DNA of 64,000 nucleotides from a virus (taxonomy: Duplodnaviria; Caudoviricetes). Shown here piece by piece: positions 7,064 to 42,016 of this stretch; position 1 is the stretch's first letter, and each line of letters opens with the position of its first letter. The stretch is from positions 102,913 through 166,912 of IMG/VR virus record IMGVR_UViG_3300032295_003840; one strand, 5' to 3'. The translations under genes and the position numbers were made by a program. Below the pieces are notes generated by a model that was given only the letters and a program-made list of their open reading frames with translations, ran no database searches and was not told the origin of the DNA.

Positions 7064-10000
7064 TTAACTGGTGCCTATGACACTGATATTTAAAAAGTCT
7101 GATGCCAGACTCTGCCAACTACCAGTCAGTCCTGTGCCTATGTCAATGCTGATGCTGGTGGACTGACTGCTGCTGATCAGCAGGGTAAATCTGCTGAAGG
7201 TTCCAGACCGTTTGACGTTGTAGGGAACCCAGATCCAGCTGGCAGTGCTGGTGACATCACCATGTGATACTGTGTTGCTGCTGATGCTGTTGCTGCTGTT
7301 CAGATATACTGATCCACGATATAGCTGGGTTCGGCCCTGTGCAATGTCCTTGTGATTTCTTTGTACTTCATCGTCGAATCCAACTACAAAGGTTCCTGTC
7401 GACGAAACTGCAATGGTCAGCTGGTTCAGAACTTCGTCGGCGCTGTCGGCCAGATCCTTGGTCCAGGTTACCAGCAGCAGTACACTGCTGCCCGCTGCGA
7501 CGCTGATGCTGGTGCTGAGCAGCGTGGTGCTGGTGCCCAGCGTCAGATTCGATGTAGTGTGATACAGTTCTCTGATCTGAGTATAATCTACATTGGCATC
7601 CTGTACTATCAGGCTTTCATCGTTGCTGATGGTGGCACCGGCCTTGTCAAAGCTGGCTCCACCAGGACGTCCCAGTGCTCGTGGTGGCTCGAATCCTCGA
7701 ATTCTGCGGAAACTTGTTGCTGTGGAACTCAGCAGAGCTGCTCGTATGGCCAGGCTGCTGACTATCAGGGTATTGTTATCAACAATGCTGATTACACGCA
7801 GCAGTTGCCCGCTGACATCCAGATAGCCAGTGCGTCGATCACTGAAATCAAATTCTGTGACTTCTTCGAAGACCTTTGTGGCTTCGCTAACCGTAACCGA
7901 GGTTGCAATGAACTGCGTGCCAGTTCCTACTATGGTGAGCTGACTGCAGTTGGCTGGGAATATACAGGCCATGGGAACATTGAAGAAATTGCCAGTAATT
8001 GCCGAACCAGTCACCAGTATAGATGAATCACTGAAAATACGCAGCACAGTAAAACTGCTGGTCTCTACAATCTCGTTATTTTCATCCAATGTATCCAATA
8101 CAACGGTAAGATCGTCTAGTCGAGTGCCATAGCCATTGCCCTGATCGTCTGTGCCTGGCAACCCATCGGTGGCCCAGCGTGTATTCAATGATGTGTTGAC
8201 AATGTTGTCGTCTGCACCATAGATCAGATAACCAGTCTGGCCGTCAATGGTAGTAGTGCGCGGTGTGGCAAATGTGGCTGTCTTGCCAGTAATGTTGGCA
8301 TAGATGCCGCCTCCGCTGACCTGAACGTCGTTGTCGTTGTTTACAGACACAATGGTGAATCTGCGATCTGCCTGCAGACCAGCTACAGTGGTGGATATTG
8401 TAATTGGTGCATTGAATCGGCTAGCACCAACAACGTTGCGCAACACCAGGCTGGTGTCACTCGGCACAGATTCAATGGCAAGTGCGCGTCGAGATACTCC
8501 AGAGCCAGCTCCGCCGCCCCAGACACGATTGCTGGTGCTGCTCCAGGCCGCAGTGACAGTCAGGGTAGTCTGATTAATCACACTATTAACGGTTCTTGTC
8601 TCGACAAAATTTAATTGAACATTGCTCAATGATACATCATACAGACCATAGCTGGTGGTGCCACCAGTGCTATAGCTGTTGATGCTGGCCTGATAGGGCA
8701 CCGATGTAACCGTACCCACGGGTCTGAGAACCAAATACTGATCTCCAAATATTGTTCGACGTCGTGGATCTTCGTCCACGTAGTAGTCTTCCAGCACCGT
8801 GGCTCCGGCCTGAGTACTGCGCACTGGCACTCGCACAACACTGCCGCTGGACAAAACGTTGCGATTATTGGACCGGGTTTCCGTGGGTATTGCTACAACG
8901 TTTATAAAGTTAATCAGATACTCACTGAGTCGCTGAGCTGCATTGCTGGTCTGAGTAGTAAAACTTTTTTGCCAGATCAACCAGGTCACCGATGTATTTT
9001 CTGTAGTTGTTATGTTTGCCGTGATTTCAAATGCATTGCCATAGTTACTGGTCATGCCATGCGGAAACGTTGCATTGGTTGGGGTCACCAATGCGCCCCA
9101 GCGAGTCCAGCCCAGTGCACTGGGAGTCTGACCTGCAGTAGGTGGCTGAGGATTGGGATTGGTGCTGTACCAGGCTTCCAAGTCCTGGCCAGTAAACACT
9201 GGTGCCAGCTCATTGTTGTAGTAACTGCTTGTGCCAACACCGCTGGATCCAGCGAATCCGCTTACATTCAGCCTATGTGTTCTGCCATACACTGGCACGG
9301 TCTGTAAAAATCTGCTGTGCACCGTGGCACTGCTGCCATAGCTGAACAGAATGCCAAATGCGGTTGTTCGATTATCATAATTGCCGAACCAACCGCTGCT
9401 AATAGTACCATAACGAGTACTGGTTTTTCTTATGTCCAGTGTTGGATTGGGGTTGCGATTCAAACTGGTAGCATTGTAACCATCCTGAGGATAGCGAGCA
9501 ATCACGCCAGTGCTGGTGCCAATAAGGTTGGTATCAAAGACAACATAGCTAAGAAAGAATGTATTATCAATAACAAGTCTGGCGTTATTGCCAATGTTGT
9601 AGTAAAACGCTCTTGCTGTGTATGATGTGGTCGGATTGAAAATATCTCCTTGGATGGCGTTCCAGGAACGCAGCAGTAGTCTGGAGTTACTGGTACCAGG
9701 TATGCTGGTGGTTATCGCCACACTGCTTGGAATTCTAGAAAAATTTACACGCAGGGTAGATGAGTCGTTGAACGCAATCCGCCCATCGGAAAAAATCAGT
9801 GTAGCCAGACCCGTGCGGGTTGATATACCGCTAACATCCGGAGGATAGAATTCAGACCATTCCAGGCTAGTAGCCCAAACTGGGTTGCTGGTATTGTAGG
9901 TACCAGTAGCATAGTTATATCTGGCATACGCCGCGCCTGGATTGCCATTGTCTGTGGATACATCACCACCTCTGAATATAACAGGACTGGCACTGTTTTC

Positions 10001-28849: not shown

Positions 28850-29199
28850 AGCGGTAGTCGGGCGCTGCGGCGCATTAAGTTGGCTTCTTCGGCTTCGGAA
28901 CGAATACGTTCTTTCAGCACCTGATTGATCAGAGGAGCCACGGCTTCAATGTCTATGTCCTTTTCTGTGCAGTAGTTGATGATGGTGTCCATGCAACTAA
29001 TCTGGTCCAGACGTGACTGAGCCTGCACCCAGGCACTGAATTCATTGGCACTGCTGAATTCTCGGGTAATAACATATTCATTGGTCAGCGTTTCACCCTG
29101 TGGGTCCACGGTCTTGTTGACCTTGACCTCACCATTGGGTCCGGTGAGTACCAGACCCAAGGTGCTTTGACTACGAATACGATCATTGATGCCACTCAT
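28846..29199 (-). CDS. gp33: Late transcription coactivator gp33
   Basis: MDTIINYCTEKDIDIEAVAPLINQVLKERIRSEAEEANL..SARLPL; synteny gp33-gp59-gp32. Confidence 0.88.
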   Translation of the reverse strand: MSGINDRIRSQSTLGLVLTGPNGEVKVNKTVDPQGETLTNEYVITREFSSANEFSAWVQAQSRLDQISCMDTIINYCTEKDIDIEAVAPLINQVLKERIRSEAEEANLMRRSARLPL

Positions 29200-30122
29200 T
29201 ATGCCACCCGGGCTTCAGGTACAGATCCACTAAAGCCTGCAGGCGCTGCTGGCACAGGCTGTGGTTGCATCCACTGAGCTGTGGCCAACAGGTCACAGAC
29301 ATACTCATAGGTACCAACGTGTACTGTCTTGGTCCAGGGAGCCAGGAATACCTGACCACCGATCTCACGCCAGCGCTTGCAGAAGGTAAAGTCTTCTGAG
29401 GTATAGGCCCGTGTAGCTGCATCGATGCTGACATCAAAGTAGGCATGAGACTCGCGCGGAGCATCGGCAGTGCGTGTCATGGTCTTGGGATCCATGGTCT
29501 CGGACCCACCACTGATGATCTTGATGTCGGGCAGCTTGTCTGCCATCTCAGCAAACACTCGACGATTGATCAGCATCATGCCAGTGGCAATGCTTTCTAC
29601 TTCCACAGGCTCATTGACATTGAAGGTCAGACTGTCACCCACGGGCTTGAAGGTTGATTCCGCAATCACAGCATTGATGGCATGCGGAGGAATATCAGGA
29701 CGAGTAGCAACCACGTGCTTTACCGCATCCCAGTTCATTTTCTTCTTGGCATACTGTCCACCAATCAGATCCTTGTCGGCATGAATCATGCGAATAATAT
29801 CATCGCCATCAAAGCCCAGGTCGGCGTCCAGGAACAACATGTGAGTGCACTGACTGCGAAGGAAGCCTTCTACCAGAATATTACGAGCCTTGGTAATCAG
29901 GCTCTCATTGGCTGCTACTTCGAACATGGCAGGAATGCCAGCCTGACTTAGCTTGGTCAGCAGATTGATCAGGCTAATCATGTACATGTAATTGCAGTTG
30001 CCGCCAAACATCGGAGTAGCAATAAACACCGATTTTTGTCTGGGCGGCTCGGCCTGTCGATTGATGAACAGGGGGTTGACTTTGCTTTGCGCCTTGACTG
30101 GCGGCTTGAGTTTATTACTCAT
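29199..30122 (-). CDS. Putative GT-A fold glycosyltransferase-like protein
   Basis: IATPMFGG, ESLITKARN, THMLFLDADLGF (DxD), ATGMMLI.R, SEDFTFC.RW, H.G. Confidence 0.7.
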   Translation of the reverse strand: MSNKLKPPVKAQSKVNPLFINRQAEPPRQKSVFIATPMFGGNCNYMYMISLINLLTKLSQAGIPAMFEVAANESLITKARNILVEGFLRSQCTHMLFLDADLGFDGDDIIRMIHADKDLIGGQYAKKKMNWDAVKHVVATRPDIPPHAINAVIAESTFKPVGDSLTFNVNEPVEVESIATGMMLINRRVFAEMADKLPDIKIISGGSETMDPKTMTRTADAPRESHAYFDVSIDAATRAYTSEDFTFCKRWREIGGQVFLAPWTKTVHVGTYEYVCDLLATAQWMQPQPVPAAPAGFSGSVPEARVA

Positions 30123-30185: not shown

Positions 30186-30214
30186 AGTATAAGGCAATTT
30201 TTTCAAGGTGTCAA
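30186..30214 (-). promoter_or_regulatory. Sigma70-type promoter for the GT-gp33-gp59-gp32 unit
   Basis: TTGACA-N17-TATACT. Confidence 0.75.
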
Positions 30215-30768
30215 TAGAATATATGGTTACCAATCTTGGCCTTGGGTTGTTTATTCCAACCAGGACTGACATAGGTAGCATGAAAGTACTTGGCACCCTG
30301 TAGTTCAGGCAGTCTGACACCATCGATCAATACTTTGCGAGCCACACGCAGACTCTCTTCATAGAGATGTGGTGCACGTATATGCAGCTTGCCTTCGCAG
30401 ACCCAGCTAAACTGACATACGGTCTGACCTTCATAGTGAGTCTTCTGATGCACTACGCCGCAGATCGATGCTGGAAACTGACCACTGTGTACACGGTTCA
30501 GCGTTACCTGAGCCACGGCAATCTTGCCTTTGATGGGTTCGCTGGCACTTTCAAAATAGATGTTGCGAGCCAGGCAGGTTAGTTCGCGATTGAGCTTGGC
30601 TTGTTCAATCTTGGCTCGCTGTTGTTCCATGGCAATGCGTGCGCTCTCACGAGCCTGCAGTTCACGAGCCTGAGCCTGTGTCTGATGCAGTATACTGGCG
30701 CCAGCAACAACAGTTGATACCAAAGTGGCTGCTACAAAAATTCTACGAACAATGTGTTTGTTCAGCAT
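30211..30768 (-). CDS. Cell wall hydrolase, SleB/Hydrolase_2 family, with N-terminal signal/anchor
   Basis: CLARNIYFES, AVAQVTLNRV, FPASICGVVHQ, CQFSW, YFHATYVSPGW, IGNHIFY. Confidence 0.93.
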   Translation of the reverse strand: MLNKHIVRRIFVAATLVSTVVAGASILHQTQAQARELQARESARIAMEQQRAKIEQAKLNRELTCLARNIYFESASEPIKGKIAVAQVTLNRVHSGQFPASICGVVHQKTHYEGQTVCQFSWVCEGKLHIRAPHLYEESLRVARKVLIDGVRLPELQGAKYFHATYVSPGWNKQPKAKIGNHIFY

Positions 30769-31334: not shown

Positions 31335-32054
31335 TTACTTCCAATACCGATCATGATCCAGACTGTTCCAGTGCTTGGCATTGTTGCGATTTAAAAAGTT
31401 TTTAATTAAATACCAGGCCATGCCAAAGTATCCCATCTGTTGAAATCTACGACTATCCTGACCAAAATAGTGCGGCATCAGTCTGAATTTTTTCACATCA
31501 TACATCTTTGAAAGAAAAAAGTCTTCGCTGGTTGTATATTTGTTTGAAAACCCACCCAACTCCTGAAATTTATCGCGCCGTGTCAGCATGAATGCACCCA
31601 CGGCAAAGGGTGTCCAGTGTTTCATTACACTGTTGACTGCATTGAATATCATGAATGCCAGCTGTGCTTTCACGCTACCGTCATAGCATTTTATATACAG
31701 TCCAATTAAATCCAAATTGTGCTGTTCAATTTCACGTACACAATCGGCAATGGTTGTCGTTGAAAAGAATCTTACATCGCTGTCAATGAATAAAATATAG
31801 GGCGTGGTTGCAAGTCTGGCGCCGTTGTTCTTGGCCACAGAAACTGCACCACCTTGGATGACTTCTATGTTTAAATTTTTACCGTGCTGACGTATGACAT
31901 CGCGCGTACCATCCGTGGATGCATCGGCAACAATGATTTTAGTGTTGCCCAGGCCCTGCAGTTTTAAATGATCCAAAAGATGGCCTATGTAGTTTTCTTC
32001 GTTTTTACACGGAACTACAATGGTTATTTTATCTTCTAATTTGATTTCTGGCAT
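31335..32054 (-). CDS. Glycosyltransferase family 2
   Basis: TIVVPCKNEE, IIVADASTDGT, AKNNGA, ILFIDSD, GGF..SEDF. Confidence 0.92.
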   Translation of the reverse strand: MPEIKLEDKITIVVPCKNEENYIGHLLDHLKLQGLGNTKIIVADASTDGTRDVIRQHGKNLNIEVIQGGAVSVAKNNGARLATTPYILFIDSDVRFFSTTTIADCVREIEQHNLDLIGLYIKCYDGSVKAQLAFMIFNAVNSVMKHWTPFAVGAFMLTRRDKFQELGGFSNKYTTSEDFFLSKMYDVKKFRLMPHYFGQDSRRFQQMGYFGMAWYLIKNFLNRNNAKHWNSLDHDRYWK

Positions 32055-32209
32055 CGGCCTTCTACCTTAAAGGCATCAAATTTCAAGGAATATGTCATGG
32101 TCTGCAGAACTTGTTCACACTGTTGTTGTGTCTGAAACTGCAGCGTGATCCGACCTGGTATGTCCCTTGGATCGTTTATGTGGACGGCCATCAATATCAT
32201 CAGCCACAT
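32036..32209 (-). CDS. Small hypothetical protein (57 aa, hydrophobic N-terminus, two Cys)
   Basis: Hand translation MWLMILMAVHINDPRDIPGRITLQFQTQQQCEQVLQTMTYSLKFDAFKVEGRCQKSN*; overlaps the non-conserved tail of the upstream gene; AGGAG upstream. Confidence 0.65.
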   Translation of the reverse strand: MWLMILMAVHINDPRDIPGRITLQFQTQQQCEQVLQTMTYSLKFDAFKVEGRCQKSN

Positions 32210-32960
32210 CGTCTTTCTCCTGTGTCCAAGTTATGATTTCCCAATGTCCATCATGATGTTCCACCAGTGCAGAACAACTTTCAACCCAGTCACCGTCATT
32301 CATGTATACAACACCATCTATTTCTTTGATCTCTGCATGATGTATGTGACCACAGATCACTCCATGGAACCCACGTTTCTTGCAGTAGCCTGCTAGGTTT
32401 TGTTCAAATTGAAAAATAAAGTCTATGGCCTTTTTTACGCGGTGCTTAAGAAAACCGCTAAGGCTAAAATAACCAATACCAAATCTATGTAGGATCCAAT
32501 TAAATTTATTATTAACTGATAAGATGCAATCATATGCTCGATCTCCTAAAAAACTTAGCCAGGGTGCTAGTCTTGTGATACCATCAAATAAATCTCCGTG
32601 TATTACCAAATAACGTCTACCGTCTGTGCCAACATGCTCGCATTGATTGGTCATTTCCACCATGCCAAAATTTAAATTATATTGCAAGAACGGTCTAAAA
32701 AATTCATCGTGATTGCCCAACACGTAGATTACACGAGTGTCGCGTTTGGCATGGCCCAGTATGCGTCGAACAACATTGGTATGACTCTGCTTCCAGCGCC
32801 ATTTGTTTTGTTTTATCTTCCAGCCGTCGATGATGTCGCCTACAAGATACAGAGTCTTGCAGGTATTGTGCTTGAGAAAATTATTTAAAGCTTCGGCTTT
32901 GCAGTCCTTGGTGCCGAGATGAACGTCGGAAATAAAGATGCTGCGATAGGTTTTTTGCAT
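32115..32960 (-). CDS. plcP: PlcP-type (LpxH2-like) metallophosphoesterase / phospholipase C
   Basis: ISDVHLG, LVGDIIDGW, GNHDE, IHGDLFD, LGDRAYD, GVICGHIHH, GDWVESCSALVE..G.WEIITW; collinear with PlcP as I recall it; has GNHD rather than the GNRD of enteric LpxH. Confidence 0.8.
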   Translation of the reverse strand: MQKTYRSIFISDVHLGTKDCKAEALNNFLKHNTCKTLYLVGDIIDGWKIKQNKWRWKQSHTNVVRRILGHAKRDTRVIYVLGNHDEFFRPFLQYNLNFGMVEMTNQCEHVGTDGRRYLVIHGDLFDGITRLAPWLSFLGDRAYDCILSVNNKFNWILHRFGIGYFSLSGFLKHRVKKAIDFIFQFEQNLAGYCKKRGFHGVICGHIHHAEIKEIDGVVYMNDGDWVESCSALVEHHDGHWEIITWTQEKDDVADDIDGRPHKRSKGHTRSDHAAVSDTTTV

Positions 32961-32995
32961 GTTATTGTTATAGTAATCAGTAATATTTATTGATC

Positions 32996-33023
32996 GCAGT
33001 ATTACCGTTCAATTACCATTACA
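32996..33023 (-). promoter_or_regulatory. 11-bp-period direct repeat (Pho-box/OmpR-family-like) upstream of plcP
   Basis: TGTAAT-GGTAATTGAAC-GGTAATACTGC; GGTAAT at 33017-33012 and 33006-33001, then ATAAATA 10 nt after the second hexamer. Confidence 0.4.
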
Positions 33024-33024
33024 A

Positions 33025-33333
33025 ATAAAAATGCCGGGTTATTCTGTTACGAGGAAACCCGACGAAACCCTAAGCAGCGTTTAGGCTGCTAATGCATAAC
33101 TTTCGTCATTTGCATTTACTTGTTTTGCTTGATTTACGGTCATCGCCTACCGTGTTGTCCATATCCTTACTCATTGCCCTGTCGAAACCATGTCTGGCCC
33201 ATCAGAAGCATATTCTGTCGTCGTTTTTGCTACGCAGGTAACGACCAAGACCTCAAAGAATATGCTTTTGGTGGACCAGGCGGGAGTCGAACCCGCGTCC
33301 AGAACACCTTTCATTCTACTTCATACAACAATA
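33025..33333 (-). ncRNA. ssrA: Circularly permuted (two-piece) tmRNA
   Basis: The acceptor piece with T-arm GCGGG-TTCGACT-CCCGC and CTGGTCC-A-CCA (ends 33269) comes first. A 68 nt intervening segment follows. The coding piece starts GGGCCAG (33200); the 7 bp acceptor stem has G3:U70. Tag ORF 33113-33081 = ANDESYALAA*. Outer ends approximate. Confidence 0.93.
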
Positions 33334-33340
33334 TCTTTAT

Positions 33341-33775
33341 TTATGGATTTTCTGCGTCAAAGGCATCCAGTGCTTTCTTGAAGCGACCAGCATGACTGCG
33401 TTCTGCCTTGGCCAGGGTCTCAAACCAGTCGGCAATCTCGTCAAATCCTTCGTCACGCGCTGTCTTGGCCATGCCTGGATACATGTCGGTGTACTCATGA
33501 GTCTCACCTTCGATGGCGCTGTGCAGTGCTTCCTTCACAGTCTTGGCTGCCAGACCAGTGCCTGGATCGCCATGACCGCCTTCGATCAGATACTCCATGT
33601 GTCCATGTGCATGACCAGTTTCGCCTTCGGCTGTGCTGCGAAACAGTGCTGCCACATCAGGAGCGCCCATGACGTCGCAGGTGTTGGCAAAATACAGATA
33701 GCGACGATTGGCCATGCTCTCGCCTGCAAAGGCTTCTTTCAGACATTCCGCGGTGCGGGTACCTTTTAAATTCAT
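33341..33775 (-). CDS. Rubrerythrin (short form, no rubredoxin domain)
   Basis: [48 protein letters not shown]. Confidence 0.95.
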
Positions 33776-33783
33776 AACAACTC

Positions 33784-34368
33784 CTACTCGTAGTGTAAAT
33801 AGCCACCGATGATGTACTTGTCATTGCTTATGGGTGGCAGTCCAGCATGCAAGTATTGCCAGGTCACAGGGAACATGATTAACCGTCCCTGTCGGGGTTT
33901 AATGGCCAAAGGTTTCTCCAGCCGATAAAAAACTGTTTCACCGCCCTCGTCTACATCGTTCAGATACCAGAAATATACTAAAAATCTACGACTGGTCTGC
34001 AGATCCCAGACATCATTGTGAGGGCGAAACTGTTCGTCAGTGCCCTTGAGATAACGTTTCATGCGTATCTCTTCCCAACTGTGTTTTGGATTGATCATTA
34101 AATCGTTGATGCCGCAGTCTAACCAGTATTGACGACGATATTCCAGAGCCAATTTCATTATGGGTTCCAAAAACCAGTCAGCCTGTACAATGTTGACTTC
34201 TGTGAACTGCATGACATCGTTACGTCGTTCTATGTGATGAGCTGTATCTGACTCAAATCTTAGCTGCAGTTCATGACATAGTTCAACTGGCATGCTGTTG
34301 TCATAGACACGAACATATTCACTCAAGTTCATGTTGCGATGTAATTTACTATAATTGTCTTGTGTCAT
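33784..34368 (-). CDS. 2OG-Fe(II) oxygenase
   Basis: HND (HxD), WYLNDVDEGGET, GRLIMFP, YLHAG, KYI. Confidence 0.92.
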   Translation of the reverse strand: MTQDNYSKLHRNMNLSEYVRVYDNSMPVELCHELQLRFESDTAHHIERRNDVMQFTEVNIVQADWFLEPIMKLALEYRRQYWLDCGINDLMINPKHSWEEIRMKRYLKGTDEQFRPHNDVWDLQTSRRFLVYFWYLNDVDEGGETVFYRLEKPLAIKPRQGRLIMFPVTWQYLHAGLPPISNDKYIIGGYLHYE

Positions 34369-35101: not shown

Positions 35102-35971
35102 TTATCCCATCATCTTTTCATAGGTTTTAGGACCAACGATGCCATCGGCAGTCAGACCATTGGCGGCTTGCCATTTCTTTACAGCGGCTTCGGTACCAGG
35201 ACCAAAATCACCGTCGGCTGTCAGACCCAGCTTGGCCTGTATCGCGGCCACGGCAGCGTTCTTAACACCCTTCTTCAGAATGCCTTCCAACACGGGTGCT
35301 GCCACGGCCTTGACTACTTCTTTTACCACGGCCTGGGTTGCTGAACTGCCACCAGAGCTTAGATATTCAACATAGTGATTAAAATGATCGGTGCGCTCCT
35401 TGAGCCCTAGATCGCCGCCGTTGATCTTTTTAGTAGCAGCCTTCATGTCACGTGCATCGGCCTGATCATTGAGCTTGTTGTTCTTCCAGAACCAGCAGGC
35501 ACTCTCAATGGCACCAGCCAAAGTTTCAACATAGACAATGGCTTCATCCAGAGTCTTGCCAATGTCCTTGGCAAAGCGTGAATAGTTGTCCTTGCCAGTA
35601 AGCTGTATGGCACCGCGGCCACGATACTTCCAACCTTCGCCGCTGGCTTCGGGTCCGTTGCCCATGCGATCCGAATAGACCTTGTTGGCAATCTTTTCAG
35701 GGTTGCGTTCATAGGGCTGAGCACTCTCCAGGGTAGGAAAGCGCTTGGGCCAGGTACCATGCAGACCCTTGGCACTGTAGTTTAGATTTTCCTTCAACAC
35801 ACTGAAGTCCACACTCTCATGACCACACTGAGCCATGAAGGCAGCTACACGTTCTGGTGTATCGATATTATACTTGGGCAGCACCTGAGCCAGGGCTTCG
35901 TAGAGCTCACCAGGATTTTTATTGCGTGGTGCGCATTTTGCGATTTGTTCTTTGGTAAAATTGAATGTCAT
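35102..35971 (-). CDS. Endolysin: GH19 catalytic domain plus C-terminal peptidoglycan-binding domain
   Basis: AFMAQCGHES, ENLNYSA, GWKYRGRGAIQLTGKDNY, TKKINGG; C-terminal DGDFGPGTEAAVKKWQ..GLTADGIVGPKT; AAGGAG before ATG 35971. Confidence 0.95.
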   Translation of the reverse strand: MTFNFTKEQIAKCAPRNKNPGELYEALAQVLPKYNIDTPERVAAFMAQCGHESVDFSVLKENLNYSAKGLHGTWPKRFPTLESAQPYERNPEKIANKVYSDRMGNGPEASGEGWKYRGRGAIQLTGKDNYSRFAKDIGKTLDEAIVYVETLAGAIESACWFWKNNKLNDQADARDMKAATKKINGGDLGLKERTDHFNHYVEYLSSGGSSATQAVVKEVVKAVAAPVLEGILKKGVKNAAVAAIQAKLGLTADGDFGPGTEAAVKKWQAANGLTADGIVGPKTYEKMMG

Positions 35972-36765
35972 GCCAGCTCCTTTACATAGAGTTTCTGATA
36001 ATGTTCTACTAGATTGGGATGGCGATCCCATTGATGTATGACCGCTGGAGTTTTGCCATAGACACTGACTCTACCATCTTCCAGAATTTTAATCTCGTCA
36101 GGATGTGTCAGACATATTGTGGCTACACCGTCACCATTTTCCTGCTTGGTGTGTGGCAGCTTGTCTTTATGGAAGATATAGTTGTGTGGTCCTTGCTCGT
36201 CGGGAATACCGCCAGCCTTGACCATCTTCTCCAGACCACGCTCGTTCATGAGCGTGACAATGTAGCGTATGATGTCTTCGGATCCACCCAAAGTAGTTCC
36301 TGAACAGATGATGCGTTTGTCAGCAAATTCTGCGGCTACTGCTTCTCCATAGTTTGTGGTCAGAATGTATTTATTGAAGCGTTCGTCACAGGTCCAGGCT
36401 GGATCTTCCATGAAGCAGTGCAGTCCTGGTGTAGTAATTTCTGCGAATACATCGCCCTGCAAAGCCACGTCACGAACATCGGTTAGAAATACACGATCAA
36501 ACTTGCCACGATTCTCCAGCAGTATGTCCAGGTATTTAAAGTAACGGGTATTGTGTATGGCGCTGGGAACGAAATATCCGGCTGTGAAGAAATGAACATC
36601 CACGCCCTGCTTCAGCAGCCAGTCATATTTTTCCTGCTTGACATCGGGTTCTACCAGCAGCACGAGTCTGGTATTGCTGCAGTACTTCTTCCAGCTCTCA
36701 ACAAATACTGCAATCTGATCAATTTTATAACTCCAGGCAGTGCCCAGTATAACATTCTGTTTCAT
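35968..36765 (-). CDS. Putative glycosyltransferase-like protein
   Basis: VFLTDVRDV..Q, ICSGT..G, DEQGPHN, HQWDR pattern of GT-A-like phage proteins. Confidence 0.55.
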   Translation of the reverse strand: MKQNVILGTAWSYKIDQIAVFVESWKKYCSNTRLVLLVEPDVKQEKYDWLLKQGVDVHFFTAGYFVPSAIHNTRYFKYLDILLENRGKFDRVFLTDVRDVALQGDVFAEITTPGLHCFMEDPAWTCDERFNKYILTTNYGEAVAAEFADKRIICSGTTLGGSEDIIRYIVTLMNERGLEKMVKAGGIPDEQGPHNYIFHKDKLPHTKQENGDGVATICLTHPDEIKILEDGRVSVYGKTPAVIHQWDRHPNLVEHYQKLYVKELA

Positions 36766-36772
36766 AATTACC

Positions 36773-37531
36773 TCAATCGTAGACTAATGATACATTGGGA
36801 CCCAGTGTGCCGAACAGATGTGTGTTGTCCAGTTCTATGGCCTGTGTAGGACCTATGTGCTTGTACAACAAATGCTCCATGTCTATGTAGTGATCTGTGC
36901 TGAGCTCAATCATGTCATCCATGGCAGCCTGCAGACGTTCCTGTGTGTTGTCCAAGAGTCCGATATCAAAACTCCAGAGACGACTGCTGAATCCATGATC
37001 GGCGCCTATGGTATGACAATGATCGGCATCCATCCAGCTGGCTTCACGACGTTTGAACACATACTTCATACCAGCATCTTCATACACAGACGCATCAAAC
37101 AAGGGACTGAGCTGATAGCGACCGCTGATCTTAAAAATGCGATCTACCTGACGTGCTGGCACCATGTCGGGATGATTGTTGATGGCATCCAGAGCATTGA
37201 GCATCAGAGTAAGTTCGGCCACGGTCTTGGCCAGACCGCTGGTGCCGCCCATTTCATGTTTATTATTGACATGACTAATAACATTCTGTTGCAGATGCTG
37301 AATCTGATCATTGTTGGTCATGTCCATGAATACATGCACCATTTCAAGTAACTGTTCCCACAATGGCGACGTTGGTAGACGACTGCCGCCTTCGACCAAC
37401 ACAGTCTTGGCATCAGGATAGAATTTATAAATGCTGCGTACGGTATCCATGGTCTGCAGGATGCGTACATCCCTGGGCAGCGGGCCCAGACTAGTTTCTA
37501 TGGCACTGGTTATGATAAAAGTTGGAGTCAT
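36773..37531 (-). CDS. Hypothetical protein of the glycan cluster
   Basis: FIITSAI, R..QT..T..SI, IFKISGRY motifs; likely start 37531. Confidence 0.65.
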   Translation of the reverse strand: MTPTFIITSAIETSLGPLPRDVRILQTMDTVRSIYKFYPDAKTVLVEGGSRLPTSPLWEQLLEMVHVFMDMTNNDQIQHLQQNVISHVNNKHEMGGTSGLAKTVAELTLMLNALDAINNHPDMVPARQVDRIFKISGRYQLSPLFDASVYEDAGMKYVFKRREASWMDADHCHTIGADHGFSSRLWSFDIGLLDNTQERLQAAMDDMIELSTDHYIDMEHLLYKHIGPTQAIELDNTHLFGTLGPNVSLVYD

Positions 37532-37532
37532 A

Positions 37533-38468
37533 TTACACCATGATGTGTTGCATGCCAGTACGCCCAACAGATTGTCCGTTGAGTTCGCGTACCAGTATGT
37601 TGGTTATAAGTCGATCATTGGTTTGATCGCAGAATTTAAATTGTGCTGGAAATTCCAGTCCAGCGTTCAGACAGTCTGTGAGTAGCTTGCCAAAGCAAAA
37701 GAAGGTATGATCAATCTGCATATTCTCATCAAAGCAGCAATAGCTAAATGGTCCGCTGTTTTTACCTACAATGAGCTTGGCACGTTTGCTGAGATAGGCA
37801 ATTTCATTGAGATCGGACTTCTTGTAGAATTCGTGAGTAGTATAGAAAACATTGGGCAGTTTAATTCCTACGTCGTGCGTGGCTACAAAGACATGATCCT
37901 TGAATTCTCGAGCCAGGTAGTCTATGCTGTATTTAAAGTCGCCCACGGCACTCTGACCACTGTTGGCTGGTCCATTGCAGAACAAAACCAGGGGAGCAGA
38001 TTGAAATTTACCAACAACAACATCATCCACCATTTTGGTATCATAGTATGAGAAGTCTATGAAGGGCAAATAGTCATGAGGATTGTTGCTCTGTGTTACT
38101 GGACGTCCCAGAATACTGCTGAGTTGTTCACAGTACATTTCATACATTCTGTGCTGTATAATGTAATTGCTGTGCTGATGATATCCAAAGAGTTCTCCCT
38201 GAAAAGCACCGCACCAGGTGTTGATGAACAGTGTGCCGTCATCGTCCTGTGCAATGCGCACCATGCGATCAATCTGTGGAAGTTCGCTCAGAGGAATATG
38301 ACGGCATCCCAGATCCTTGATGATGTCTGCATGGTTGGCATGCGCATAACTGAAATTTAAATCGGGCAGTTGACGCATAATGTTGCGTATCCACCCTTTG
38401 CCCACAAAGCAATCACCATTGTGATACTGGTTAAAGAATACTATGTTTTTAACCATTGTGTTTCCCAA
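37533..38468 (-). CDS. Hypothetical protein, possibly GT-B fold
   Basis: FFNQYHNGD (H.GD) and DLNEIAYLS...IVGKNSGP resemble GT9-like motifs. Confidence 0.55.
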   Translation of the reverse strand: MGNTMVKNIVFFNQYHNGDCFVGKGWIRNIMRQLPDLNFSYAHANHADIIKDLGCRHIPLSELPQIDRMVRIAQDDDGTLFINTWCGAFQGELFGYHQHSNYIIQHRMYEMYCEQLSSILGRPVTQSNNPHDYLPFIDFSYYDTKMVDDVVVGKFQSAPLVLFCNGPANSGQSAVGDFKYSIDYLAREFKDHVFVATHDVGIKLPNVFYTTHEFYKKSDLNEIAYLSKRAKLIVGKNSGPFSYCCFDENMQIDHTFFCFGKLLTDCLNAGLEFPAQFKFCDQTNDRLITNILVRELNGQSVGRTGMQHIMV

Positions 38469-41142: not shown

Positions 41143-41898
41143 TCAGGCTACGTGCTTGGCTTCGTACTCCATGCGTGCAAGTATATATTCCCTGACAATG
41201 TCACTGCGTACAATGTCGTCAACATCAAACTCCACGCTGCGGAAGCTGGGCATCATGTCGGCTATGGCCATGAACTTTTTAAGTCCACTCATGTCGCCTT
41301 TCTTGTACAGATCGGTCTGACGGAAGTCTCCACAGAAGATGATCTTTGAGCGATCACCAACACGAGTCATGATACTGTTCAATTCCATGTCGGTCATGTT
41401 CTGACATTCATCGACAATGACAATGCTGTCATCCAGGGTAATACCGCGTACAAAGCTAGTGATCATAAAGTTAATGACCTTCTGTTCCTGTAGTCTTTGA
41501 AACGCATCATGGCGATTATAGAATAGTCTGTGACAGATGTCAATATAGGGGGCGGTATATACTTCGGTTTTCTCCTTTTCATCGCCAGGCAGGTGACCGA
41601 TGTCGCGGCTGGGCACAGCACTGCGAACCAGAACTACCTGCTGTAGTCTGTTGCTACGATCCATTACTTCTTCCAGAGCTTTGTACAAAGCTATGAAAGT
41701 CTTACCTGTTCCTGCTACGCCATGTAGCAGCATACACTGGGCTCCTTGTTGATACAGTTCAAAAAATTTATTTTGATTTTCAGTCAGAGGATCAAAAGTT
41801 GCCAAATCATCGATGTTAAGTTTTAACTTCTGATGATTGCTTTTGAGCGTGACTGCGGGGGCTAGCTGAAGAGCTTGTTGTGTATTCTTTTTTGCCAT
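41143..41898 (-). CDS. phoH: PhoH-family ATPase
   Basis: [52 protein letters not shown]; likely start MAKK at 41898. Confidence 0.95.
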
Positions 41899-41939
41899 GA
41901 TTGCCCTTTGTTTCTTCTTCTTGGTTGGAGTTTCAGTCA

Positions 41940-41986
41940 AAGAAAAACCCCCAAGCAGTGCCGCGCGGCGGCTAGCTGGTGGGGGC
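41940..41986 (-). terminator. Extended GC-rich hairpin plus U-tract in the phoH leader
   Basis: CCCCCACCAGCTAGCCGCCGCGCGGCACTGCTTGGGGG-TTTTTCTTT. Confidence 0.55.
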
Positions 41987-42016
41987 CGTGGTGTTCTTTG
42001 TCTGGCTGTCAATTCA

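Follow-up and report, generated by a model that had tools for sequence, protein, structure and literature searches.

The locus described here raises the question whether a phage may bring along a pathway which draws phosphorus from the membrane phospholipids of its host. The DNA under study, called the window throughout, comprises the final 64 kb of a 166,912-bp IMG/VR virus record (IMGVR_UViG_3300032295_003840; CheckV completeness 92%). On its minus strand a block of three overlapping genes, hereafter the cassette, codes for a metallophosphoesterase of 281 aa (plcP, 32115..32960), a small conserved protein of 57 aa (orf57, 32036..32209) and a GT2-family glycosyltransferase of 239 aa with a GT-A fold (31335..32054). 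We report that the phosphoesterase very probably is a member of the PlcP family of phospholipase C-type enzymes and not an LpxH. The cassette probably represents a version, carried by a phage, of a pathway known from bacteria, the Pho-regulon route of PlcP and the glycosyltransferase Agt (PMC4796936; P. aeruginosa preprint).

A sequence-only reading of the same DNA had placed a plcP within a phage, in a unit of three overlapping open reading frames (ORFs). Both points hold. By PHROGs the phage, which stems from a lake, is a T4-like myovirus; baseplate wedge subunits, a baseplate hub/tail lysozyme, a tail protein and an ATP-dependent DNA ligase are encoded in the window, i.e. structural genes of the T4 type reside on the same stretch of this virus record. 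The three ORFs, their overlaps and their coordinates were all recovered. As a host-derived metabolic element in a bona fide phage genome the cassette counts as an auxiliary metabolic gene set.

Identity of the phosphoesterase

The plcP translation contains the stretches LGDRAYD, GVICGHIHH, GDWVESC and GNHD, as had been read from the sequence. Residues D12, H14, D42, N83, H84, D85, H121, H205 and H207 were invariant in 33 homologues, and the protein matched Pfam Metallophos (PF00149/PF12850) above the cut-off. The conserved core extends over approximately residues 1-250; homologues stop at about residue 248. In BLASTP searches the orthologues of PA3219 (P. aeruginosa) and SMc00171 (S. meliloti) shared 53% (E 1e-91) and 47% (E 1e-85) identity with the window protein, respectively. 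Validated PlcPs are mutually 46-47% identical (P. aeruginosa preprint). The published operational criterion for a PlcP is a BLASTP E < 1e-40 to a validated PlcP, with the Phaeobacter MED193 PlcP as query (Sebastian et al. 2016); here the PA3219 and SMc00171 orthologues were used in its place, and both E values lie below this limit. Both reference loci are mislabelled chromosomal pieces within a 'plasmids' collection, and they were assigned by their neighborhoods. The P. aeruginosa homologue is located directly 5' of a family-1 glycosyltransferase gene, which in turn abuts cyaB; we take these three genes to be PA3219, PA3218 and PA3217. The S. meliloti homologue is close to sinR/sinI-type genes for a LuxR regulator and an acyl-homoserine lactone synthase, which fits SMc00171.

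Automatic annotations (JGI, GenBank and KEGG-based labels) call the gene LpxH/K03269. Accordingly labelled, it would encode a UDP-2,3-diacylglucosamine pyrophosphatase which boosts or alters lipid A/lipopolysaccharide synthesis during infection. The two proteins do have much in common: the calcineurin-like metallophosphoesterase superfamily, the DxH, GD and GHxH motifs, a long insertion which separates the H motif from GHxH, a weak similarity in the N-terminal part and a substrate which also is a diacyl lipid phosphoester. However, against NF003743, the NCBIfam equivalog for LpxH, the window protein reached only 35.6 bits, with a cut-off of 134. Identity to LpxH was about 21-24% (31% in one match of 42 residues) and was confined to the first 120-155 residues or so; among PDB chains no match to the window protein was observed at E <= 1e-3 (phmmer). 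The window protein has GNHD, as do 80/80 bacterial PlcP homologues and 17 of 18 viral ones, whereas GNRD is present in 8/8 LpxH sequences. Bacteria retain both genes. Seven beta- and gammaproteobacterial genomes in which the window protein has a homologue were inspected; all of them contain a true LpxH (equivalog score 228-340 bits), and in six of the seven the PlcP paralogue appeared in the same search with 42-57 bits. The window PlcP is 50-54% identical to these paralogues over approximately 245 residues (BLASTP E 1e-92 to 1e-96).

A phylogeny of PlcP and LpxH, which the sequence-only reading had proposed as a check, gave the same answer. In a careful maximum-likelihood tree (IQ-TREE; 53 rows with LpxH, bacterial PlcP and viral sequences) the window protein was placed in the PlcP clade; LpxH was set apart with 100/100 support, and the separating branch has a length of 2.7 substitutions per site. 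The Pelagibacter phage Mosig, together with one 348-kb contig labelled as a metagenome-assembled genome (MAG), forms the sister group of the freshwater viral clade (100/99). The gammaproteobacterial PlcPs, PA3219 among them, branch off next (100/99), and the S. meliloti sequence takes the basal position. Thus, the viral PlcP clade is bracketed by two validated PlcPs. On these grounds an LpxH-type function of the phage gene is hardly tenable.

The 348-kb contig deserves a comment. It is deposited as 'Pseudomonadota MAG' (JBCCBQ010000005.1) and carries the closest PlcP with a bacterial label, 59% identical to the window protein. This PlcP groups with the phage clade and Mosig, and the contig has the size of jumbo phages which carry the cassette. 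It shares almost nothing else with the window phage (12.7 kb of the contig were compared). Possibly it is a mis-binned phage.

The cassette in viruses and bacteria

The cassette is widespread: PlcPs which are 73-89% identical to that of the window were found on at least 595 IMG/VR contigs, and a search of metagenome proteins with PlcP yielded at least 8000 candidates, all with E <= 0.001. Some relatives of plcP are located on phage-like contigs of 350-367 kb. The survey of plcP-GT2 linkage in viral sequences, also proposed beforehand, was carried out by comparison of gene order in 73 distinct viral loci. After plcP-orf57 a GT2 gene followed in 31 loci and a GT4 gene (Glyco_transf_4 plus Glycos_transf_1) in 35; in three loci plcP-orf57 was present without a glycosyltransferase. 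One relative (L044) has phoH in place of the glycosyltransferase. Both types of glycosyltransferase gene mostly begin 900-927 nt past the start of plcP, and both overlap orf57. Mapped on the plcP tree, 10 changes between GT2 and GT4 are needed, of which strongly supported branches enforce at least eight. The phage GT4 is 39% identical to Agt1 of P. aeruginosa (E 1e-79), a validated monoglucosyl-diacylglycerol synthase (P. aeruginosa preprint).

In bacteria the glycosyltransferase next to plcP had been expected to be usually a GT4, and this is so: among 80 bacterial plcP loci, with PlcPs 45-59% identical to that of the window, a homologous GT4 gene is located directly 3' in approximately 52. 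Neither a GT2 gene of the window type nor orf57 was found in any of the 80. Therefore, the phage cassette appears as a bacterial plcP-agt operon into which orf57 was inserted and in which Agt was repeatedly exchanged for a GT2.

The sequence-only reading had noted that the block is richer in AT than its flanks. Indeed, the G+C content of the cassette is 0.412 compared with 0.483 +/- 0.024 for equal-sized windows of the genome; just 0.36% of these have so low a value. In relatives with a lower G+C content the cassette does not differ from its flanks. This suggests that the window phage acquired the cassette from such a relative.

orf57 shares 95 nt with the 3' end of plcP and 19 nt with the start of the GT2 gene. 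An AGGAG is present 7 nt ahead of its ATG, and a GAAGG directly precedes the ATG of the GT2 gene; the small gene is translationally coupled to both neighbors. That it is a real gene and not a chance frame follows from 66 distinct variants, in all of which the frame stays open and begins with a conserved Met, and from the variation at third codon positions, which tracks its frame. Nucleotide diversity at the three codon positions of the orf57 frame was 0.27/0.18/0.42 within the plcP overlap and 0.32/0.29/0.53 outside of it. The PlcP tail encoded in the overlap (residues 251-281) has an amino-acid diversity of 0.55 compared with 0.13 in the core. The offset of orf57 is unchanged in practically all viral relatives, and a Shine-Dalgarno sequence precedes it in 72 of 74 relatives.

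The orf57 protein has two invariant Cys, and its AlphaFold2 model is a beta-beta-alpha-beta structure of high confidence, with a predicted local distance difference test (pLDDT) score of 93.7. A convincing match to a known fold was not obtained: Foldseek against the PDB returned a best E of about 1, the best Z in VIA-align was 5.8 (a PurS-like half ferredoxin fold), which is under the noise level stated for the tool, and the Atlas search gave unnamed clusters only. A small ORF which overlaps the 3' end of plcP in phage Mosig, Mosig_00121, was considered as a homologue and rejected (hhalign probability 0.1). Since orf57 is retained with plcP whichever glycosyltransferase comes next, its product most likely acts together with PlcP.

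The GT2 enzyme matched Pfam Glycos_transf_2 (PF00535) with 76.4 bits (cut-off 23.3) and has no GT4 domains. D91 and D93 of its DxD motif are invariant. It is not an Agt by the features of that enzyme, i.e. a GT-B architecture, Glyco_transf_4 plus Glycos_transf_1 domains and homology to Agt1. It also matched Pfam GT21 with 41 bits, a family of ceramide/diacylglycerol glycosyltransferases which includes Pgt. The nearest named clusters were TIGR04283-like and CrtQ-like enzymes; TIGR04283 was the best NCBIfam match with 73 bits against a cut-off of 182, and the protein remained under every NCBIfam equivalog cut-off. The AlphaFold2 model (pLDDT 90.6) had the GT2 enzymes TarS, WrtF and TarP as top Foldseek matches. 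Because the GT2 shares its slot with an Agt-like GT4, we propose by analogy that its acceptor may be diacylglycerol.

Among bacterial full-length homologues of the GT2 the closest (30% identity) comes from Photobacterium sp. DA100 (locus at 708872-719525 of NZ_CP119424.1). There it is flanked by genes for an alpha/beta-hydrolase and for a membrane protein with VTT(DedA) and LssY_C domains, a context of lipid flavor. This may be an uncharacterised operon for membrane-lipid modification.

Phosphate context, proposed pathway and alternatives

In many relatives a pstS gene (PBP_like_2) and a gene for an OprO/P porin (Porin_O_P) directly adjoin the cassette on either side; in one relative a Porin_4 gene is present in place of the O/P porin. 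In phage Mosig, plcP is divergent from an adjacent pstS. A direct repeat precedes both plcP and pstS. Of YTGTAAY-N4-YTGTAAY, with up to one mismatch, 79 copies were counted across 823 kb of viral loci compared with about 8 in shuffled sequences; 34 copies are located 37-53 nt 5' of plcP and 19 copies 49-97 nt 5' of pstS. The repeat is built like a Pho box (7+4+7) and in each half-site is one base off the TGTCAY boxes ahead of pstS in two Burkholderiales genomes. In the window the corresponding element is TGGTAAT-N4-CGGTAAT (33001..33018, minus strand), 58 to 41 nt 5' of the plcP ATG. This copy differs from the consensus at two positions and follows immediately upon the hairpin and T-run at the end of a transfer-messenger RNA (tmRNA) gene. 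A copy with up to two mismatches is present at this position in 44 of 74 distinct relatives (59%) compared with 1% of 65-nt background windows. A sigma-70 -35/-10 pair was not found before plcP, as expected for an activator-dependent promoter. The repeat may bind PhoB and put the cassette under Pho control.

Further repeats and phosphate-type genes were seen. In one relative (L034) an ORF of 230 aa without a Pfam family (7933-8625, plus strand) is located between GT4 and pstS with the same repeat upstream at 7895; it may be a further member of a phage phosphate module. Similar repeat sites occur about 1.9 kb past the start of plcP in four other relatives (L045, L063, L078 and L080). The window itself contains a phoH homologue (41143-42012, minus strand; PF02562, 158 bits) approximately 8 kb from the cassette.

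Taken together, we favor as probable that the cassette is an auxiliary pathway for phosphate starvation which leads from phospholipid via diacylglycerol to glycolipid, a phage version of bacterial PlcP-Agt. In a phosphate-starved host an activator of the PhoB type would bind the repeat 5' of plcP, and the three coupled genes would be transcribed. Cytoplasmic PlcP at the membrane surface would then cleave glycerophospholipids to diacylglycerol and a phosphorylated head group, an activity predicted from the validated homologues. Host phosphatases and central metabolism would free the phosphorus, which could then enter nucleotides and phage DNA. Finally, the GT2 would convert diacylglycerol into a phosphorus-free glycolipid such that the membrane holds until lysis; for this step we rely on the positional equivalence with the Agt-like GT4. 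Of the corresponding proposal in the sequence-only reading, the PlcP family, the phage setting and the three-gene unit with a GT2 stand, and the pstS, porin and repeat context in relatives agrees with it; the flow of phosphorus and the acceptor of the GT2 remain at the level of a proposal.

Several observations weigh against a phosphate-starvation pathway which ends with a GT2-made glycolipid. The record of the window phage, at its 92% completeness, contains neither pstS nor an OprO/P porin gene. The window repeat is not significant genome-wide (12 hits with up to two mismatches, 11.75 expected), and in the window, matches to the Pho-box consensus of E. coli were no more frequent than expected (9 compared with 10.3, none 5' of plcP). 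The fold matches of the GT2 are generic GT-A enzymes and uninformative on the acceptor. It has no characterised relative above about 30% identity, which also is the value of the best bacterial match; no full-length match was found among isolate phages, and within 6 kb of plcP a GT2 of the window type never occurred in the 80 bacterial loci.

These points leave room for two other uses of the same genes. The enzymes might serve to remodel the inner membrane and thereby to change properties of the membrane or cell surface, for example for superinfection exclusion, for resistance to grazers or antimicrobial peptides, or for the timing of lysis. In bacteria lipid renovation is reported to alter phage attachment, grazing and polymyxin sensitivity (PMC9938194; PMC9457565; P. 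aeruginosa preprint), and a phage which lacks pstS and the porin and has a degenerate repeat would suit such a role. Yet the cassettes of the relatives are tightly linked to pstS and the phosphate porin, they have the same repeat upstream, and PlcP-Agt in bacteria belongs to the Pho regulon, so we regard a remodelling of the membrane for its own sake as rather unlikely. The other possibility retains PlcP as described and separates the GT2 from diacylglycerol, which would be left to host enzymes. The GT2 would then act on polyprenyl phosphate or O-antigen in a GtrB-like seroconversion, on a lipid of the carotenoid or hopanoid type, or on a phage component. A weak PHROG match to GtrB-like O-antigen conversion (29.6 bits) and the TIGR04283-like and CrtQ-like neighbors point in this direction, as do the absence of such a GT2 from all 80 bacterial plcP loci and the three viral loci without any glycosyltransferase. 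Against this, the start of the GT2 gene overlaps orf57 exactly as that of the Agt-like GT4, the two alternate at least eight times on the plcP tree, and enzymes of the GT2/GT21 type which glycosylate diacylglycerol are known (Pgt; PMC4796936). An acceptor other than diacylglycerol is thus quite improbable.

Hints as to the host come from the tmRNA gene. Directly 5' of plcP, at 33013-33383 on the minus strand, a complete two-piece (permuted) betaproteobacterial tmRNA is encoded (RF01850, 142.5 bits; RF04321, 144 bits) with the tag ANDESYALAA (ARAGORN). Among 301 Burkholderiales genomes the best matches to it were in two genomes of 2.0-2.3 Mb, G255 and G075, with 78-81% identity over parts only. 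In these two genomes (loci L184, L185, L194 and L195) LpxH is present, and pstS has Pho boxes of the TGTCAY type; a PlcP-like gene was not found by protein or family query. A host lineage of the G255/G075 type may therefore be devoid of lipid renovation, and the phage may supply the missing pathway. amoC was not found in G255 and G075 in a search without a positive control. Nor is amoC present in the window phage, and a link to the published amoC-phages was not found.

Other genes near the cassette are of mixed character. The Rfam range of the tmRNA overlaps the final 43 nt or so of a rubrerythrin ORF (33341-33775, minus strand), and 5' of it a 2OG-Fe(II) oxygenase gene is located (33784-34368, minus strand). 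A near-consensus sigma-70 promoter (34424-34396) precedes the two genes. The oxygenase is 41% identical to the product of the gene after plcP in phage Mosig, and rubrerythrin adjoins the cassette in the 350-kb relatives as well. On the other side, an ORF of 307 aa (29199-30122, minus strand) has a weak match to Anp1, a mannosyltransferase-like family, only. Two ORFs of 264-265 aa without a Pfam family are located at 35968-36765 and 36773-37567 (minus strand). A gene for a SleB-like cell-wall hydrolase (30211-30768) is close by. The 307-aa and 264-265-aa ORFs could be further envelope-modifying genes.

Relation to known systems

In the open-access literature we found work on bacterial PlcP and no description of a phage PlcP. 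Viral surveys list lpxH/K03269 as a gene of lipopolysaccharide biosynthesis (PMC9611531; PMC10653327), and a 2026 preprint reports a phage oprP and not PlcP (bioRxiv 10.64898/2026.06.18.733297). With plcP abundant as described above, tallies of auxiliary metabolic genes which count lpxH/K03269 under lipopolysaccharide may partly reflect lipid remodelling.

If the proposed pathway operates, infected cells would turn the phosphorus of membrane phospholipids into virion DNA, a viral phosphorus route not yet described. A bacterial cell contains, as a rough figure, millions of phospholipid molecules, and a genome of 167 kb about 3.3e5 phosphorus atoms, thus the membrane phosphorus roughly corresponds to tens of phage genomes. 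In its widest form the proposal is that freshwater phages of a large and widespread clade, both T4-like and jumbo, equip hosts which perhaps lack PlcP with a complete lipid renovation under Pho control, with orf57 as an unrecognised small subunit or regulator and the GT2 as a new diacylglycerol glycosyltransferase. We put this forward tentatively, as somewhat less likely than not. The repeated swap of GT2 and GT4 nominates a new type of diacylglycerol glycosyltransferase, and the orf57 protein, seen in phage cassettes only, is a candidate for a new component of the pathway.

For the GT2 itself the closest parallels are lipid glycosyltransferases. Like the GT2/GT21 enzymes, such as the processive Pgt of Mesorhizobium and Agrobacterium and short GT2s, it has a GT-A fold, a DxD motif and the size of a single domain. 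Cyanobacterial MgdA is another diacylglycerol glycosyltransferase of the GT2/GT21 type. The TIGR04283-like and CrtQ-like GT2s, which are nearest to the window enzyme, use lipophilic acceptors.

For the cassette as a whole the obvious relative is the bacterial PlcP-Agt pathway. It is represented by S. meliloti SMc00171, Phaeobacter sp. MED193_17359, SAR11 HTCC7211 PB7211_983/960, P. aeruginosa PA3219/PA3218/PA0842 and B. cenocepacia BCAL2364-2366. The window PlcP is at the level of an orthologue and is located inside the validated clade; plcP is directly 5' of the glycosyltransferase part of the operon, the upstream direct repeat has the architecture of a Pho box, and sister phages have a true homologue of Agt as their glycosyltransferase. 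There are differences as well. The phage cassette resides on a lytic-type T4-like phage, orf57 is wedged between the two enzymes, the GT2 is unrelated to the GT4 Agt it replaces, and the half-site of the repeat is TGTAAY in phages (GGTAAT in the window) compared with TGTCAY in bacteria.

Among phages, the genes for phosphate stress are the best precedent. pstS and phoA of T4-like cyanophages, controlled by the PhoBR of the host, likewise are host-derived Pho-regulon genes in T4-like aquatic phages. The oprP of freshwater amoC-phages (bioRxiv 10.64898/2026.06.18.733297) has its counterpart in relatives of the cassette which adjoin pstS and oprP behind a Pho-box-like element. Yet pstS, phoA and oprP of phages serve to import external phosphate, whereas the cassette, if the proposed pathway is correct, would tap the membrane of the host itself and mobilise the phosphorus locked therein.

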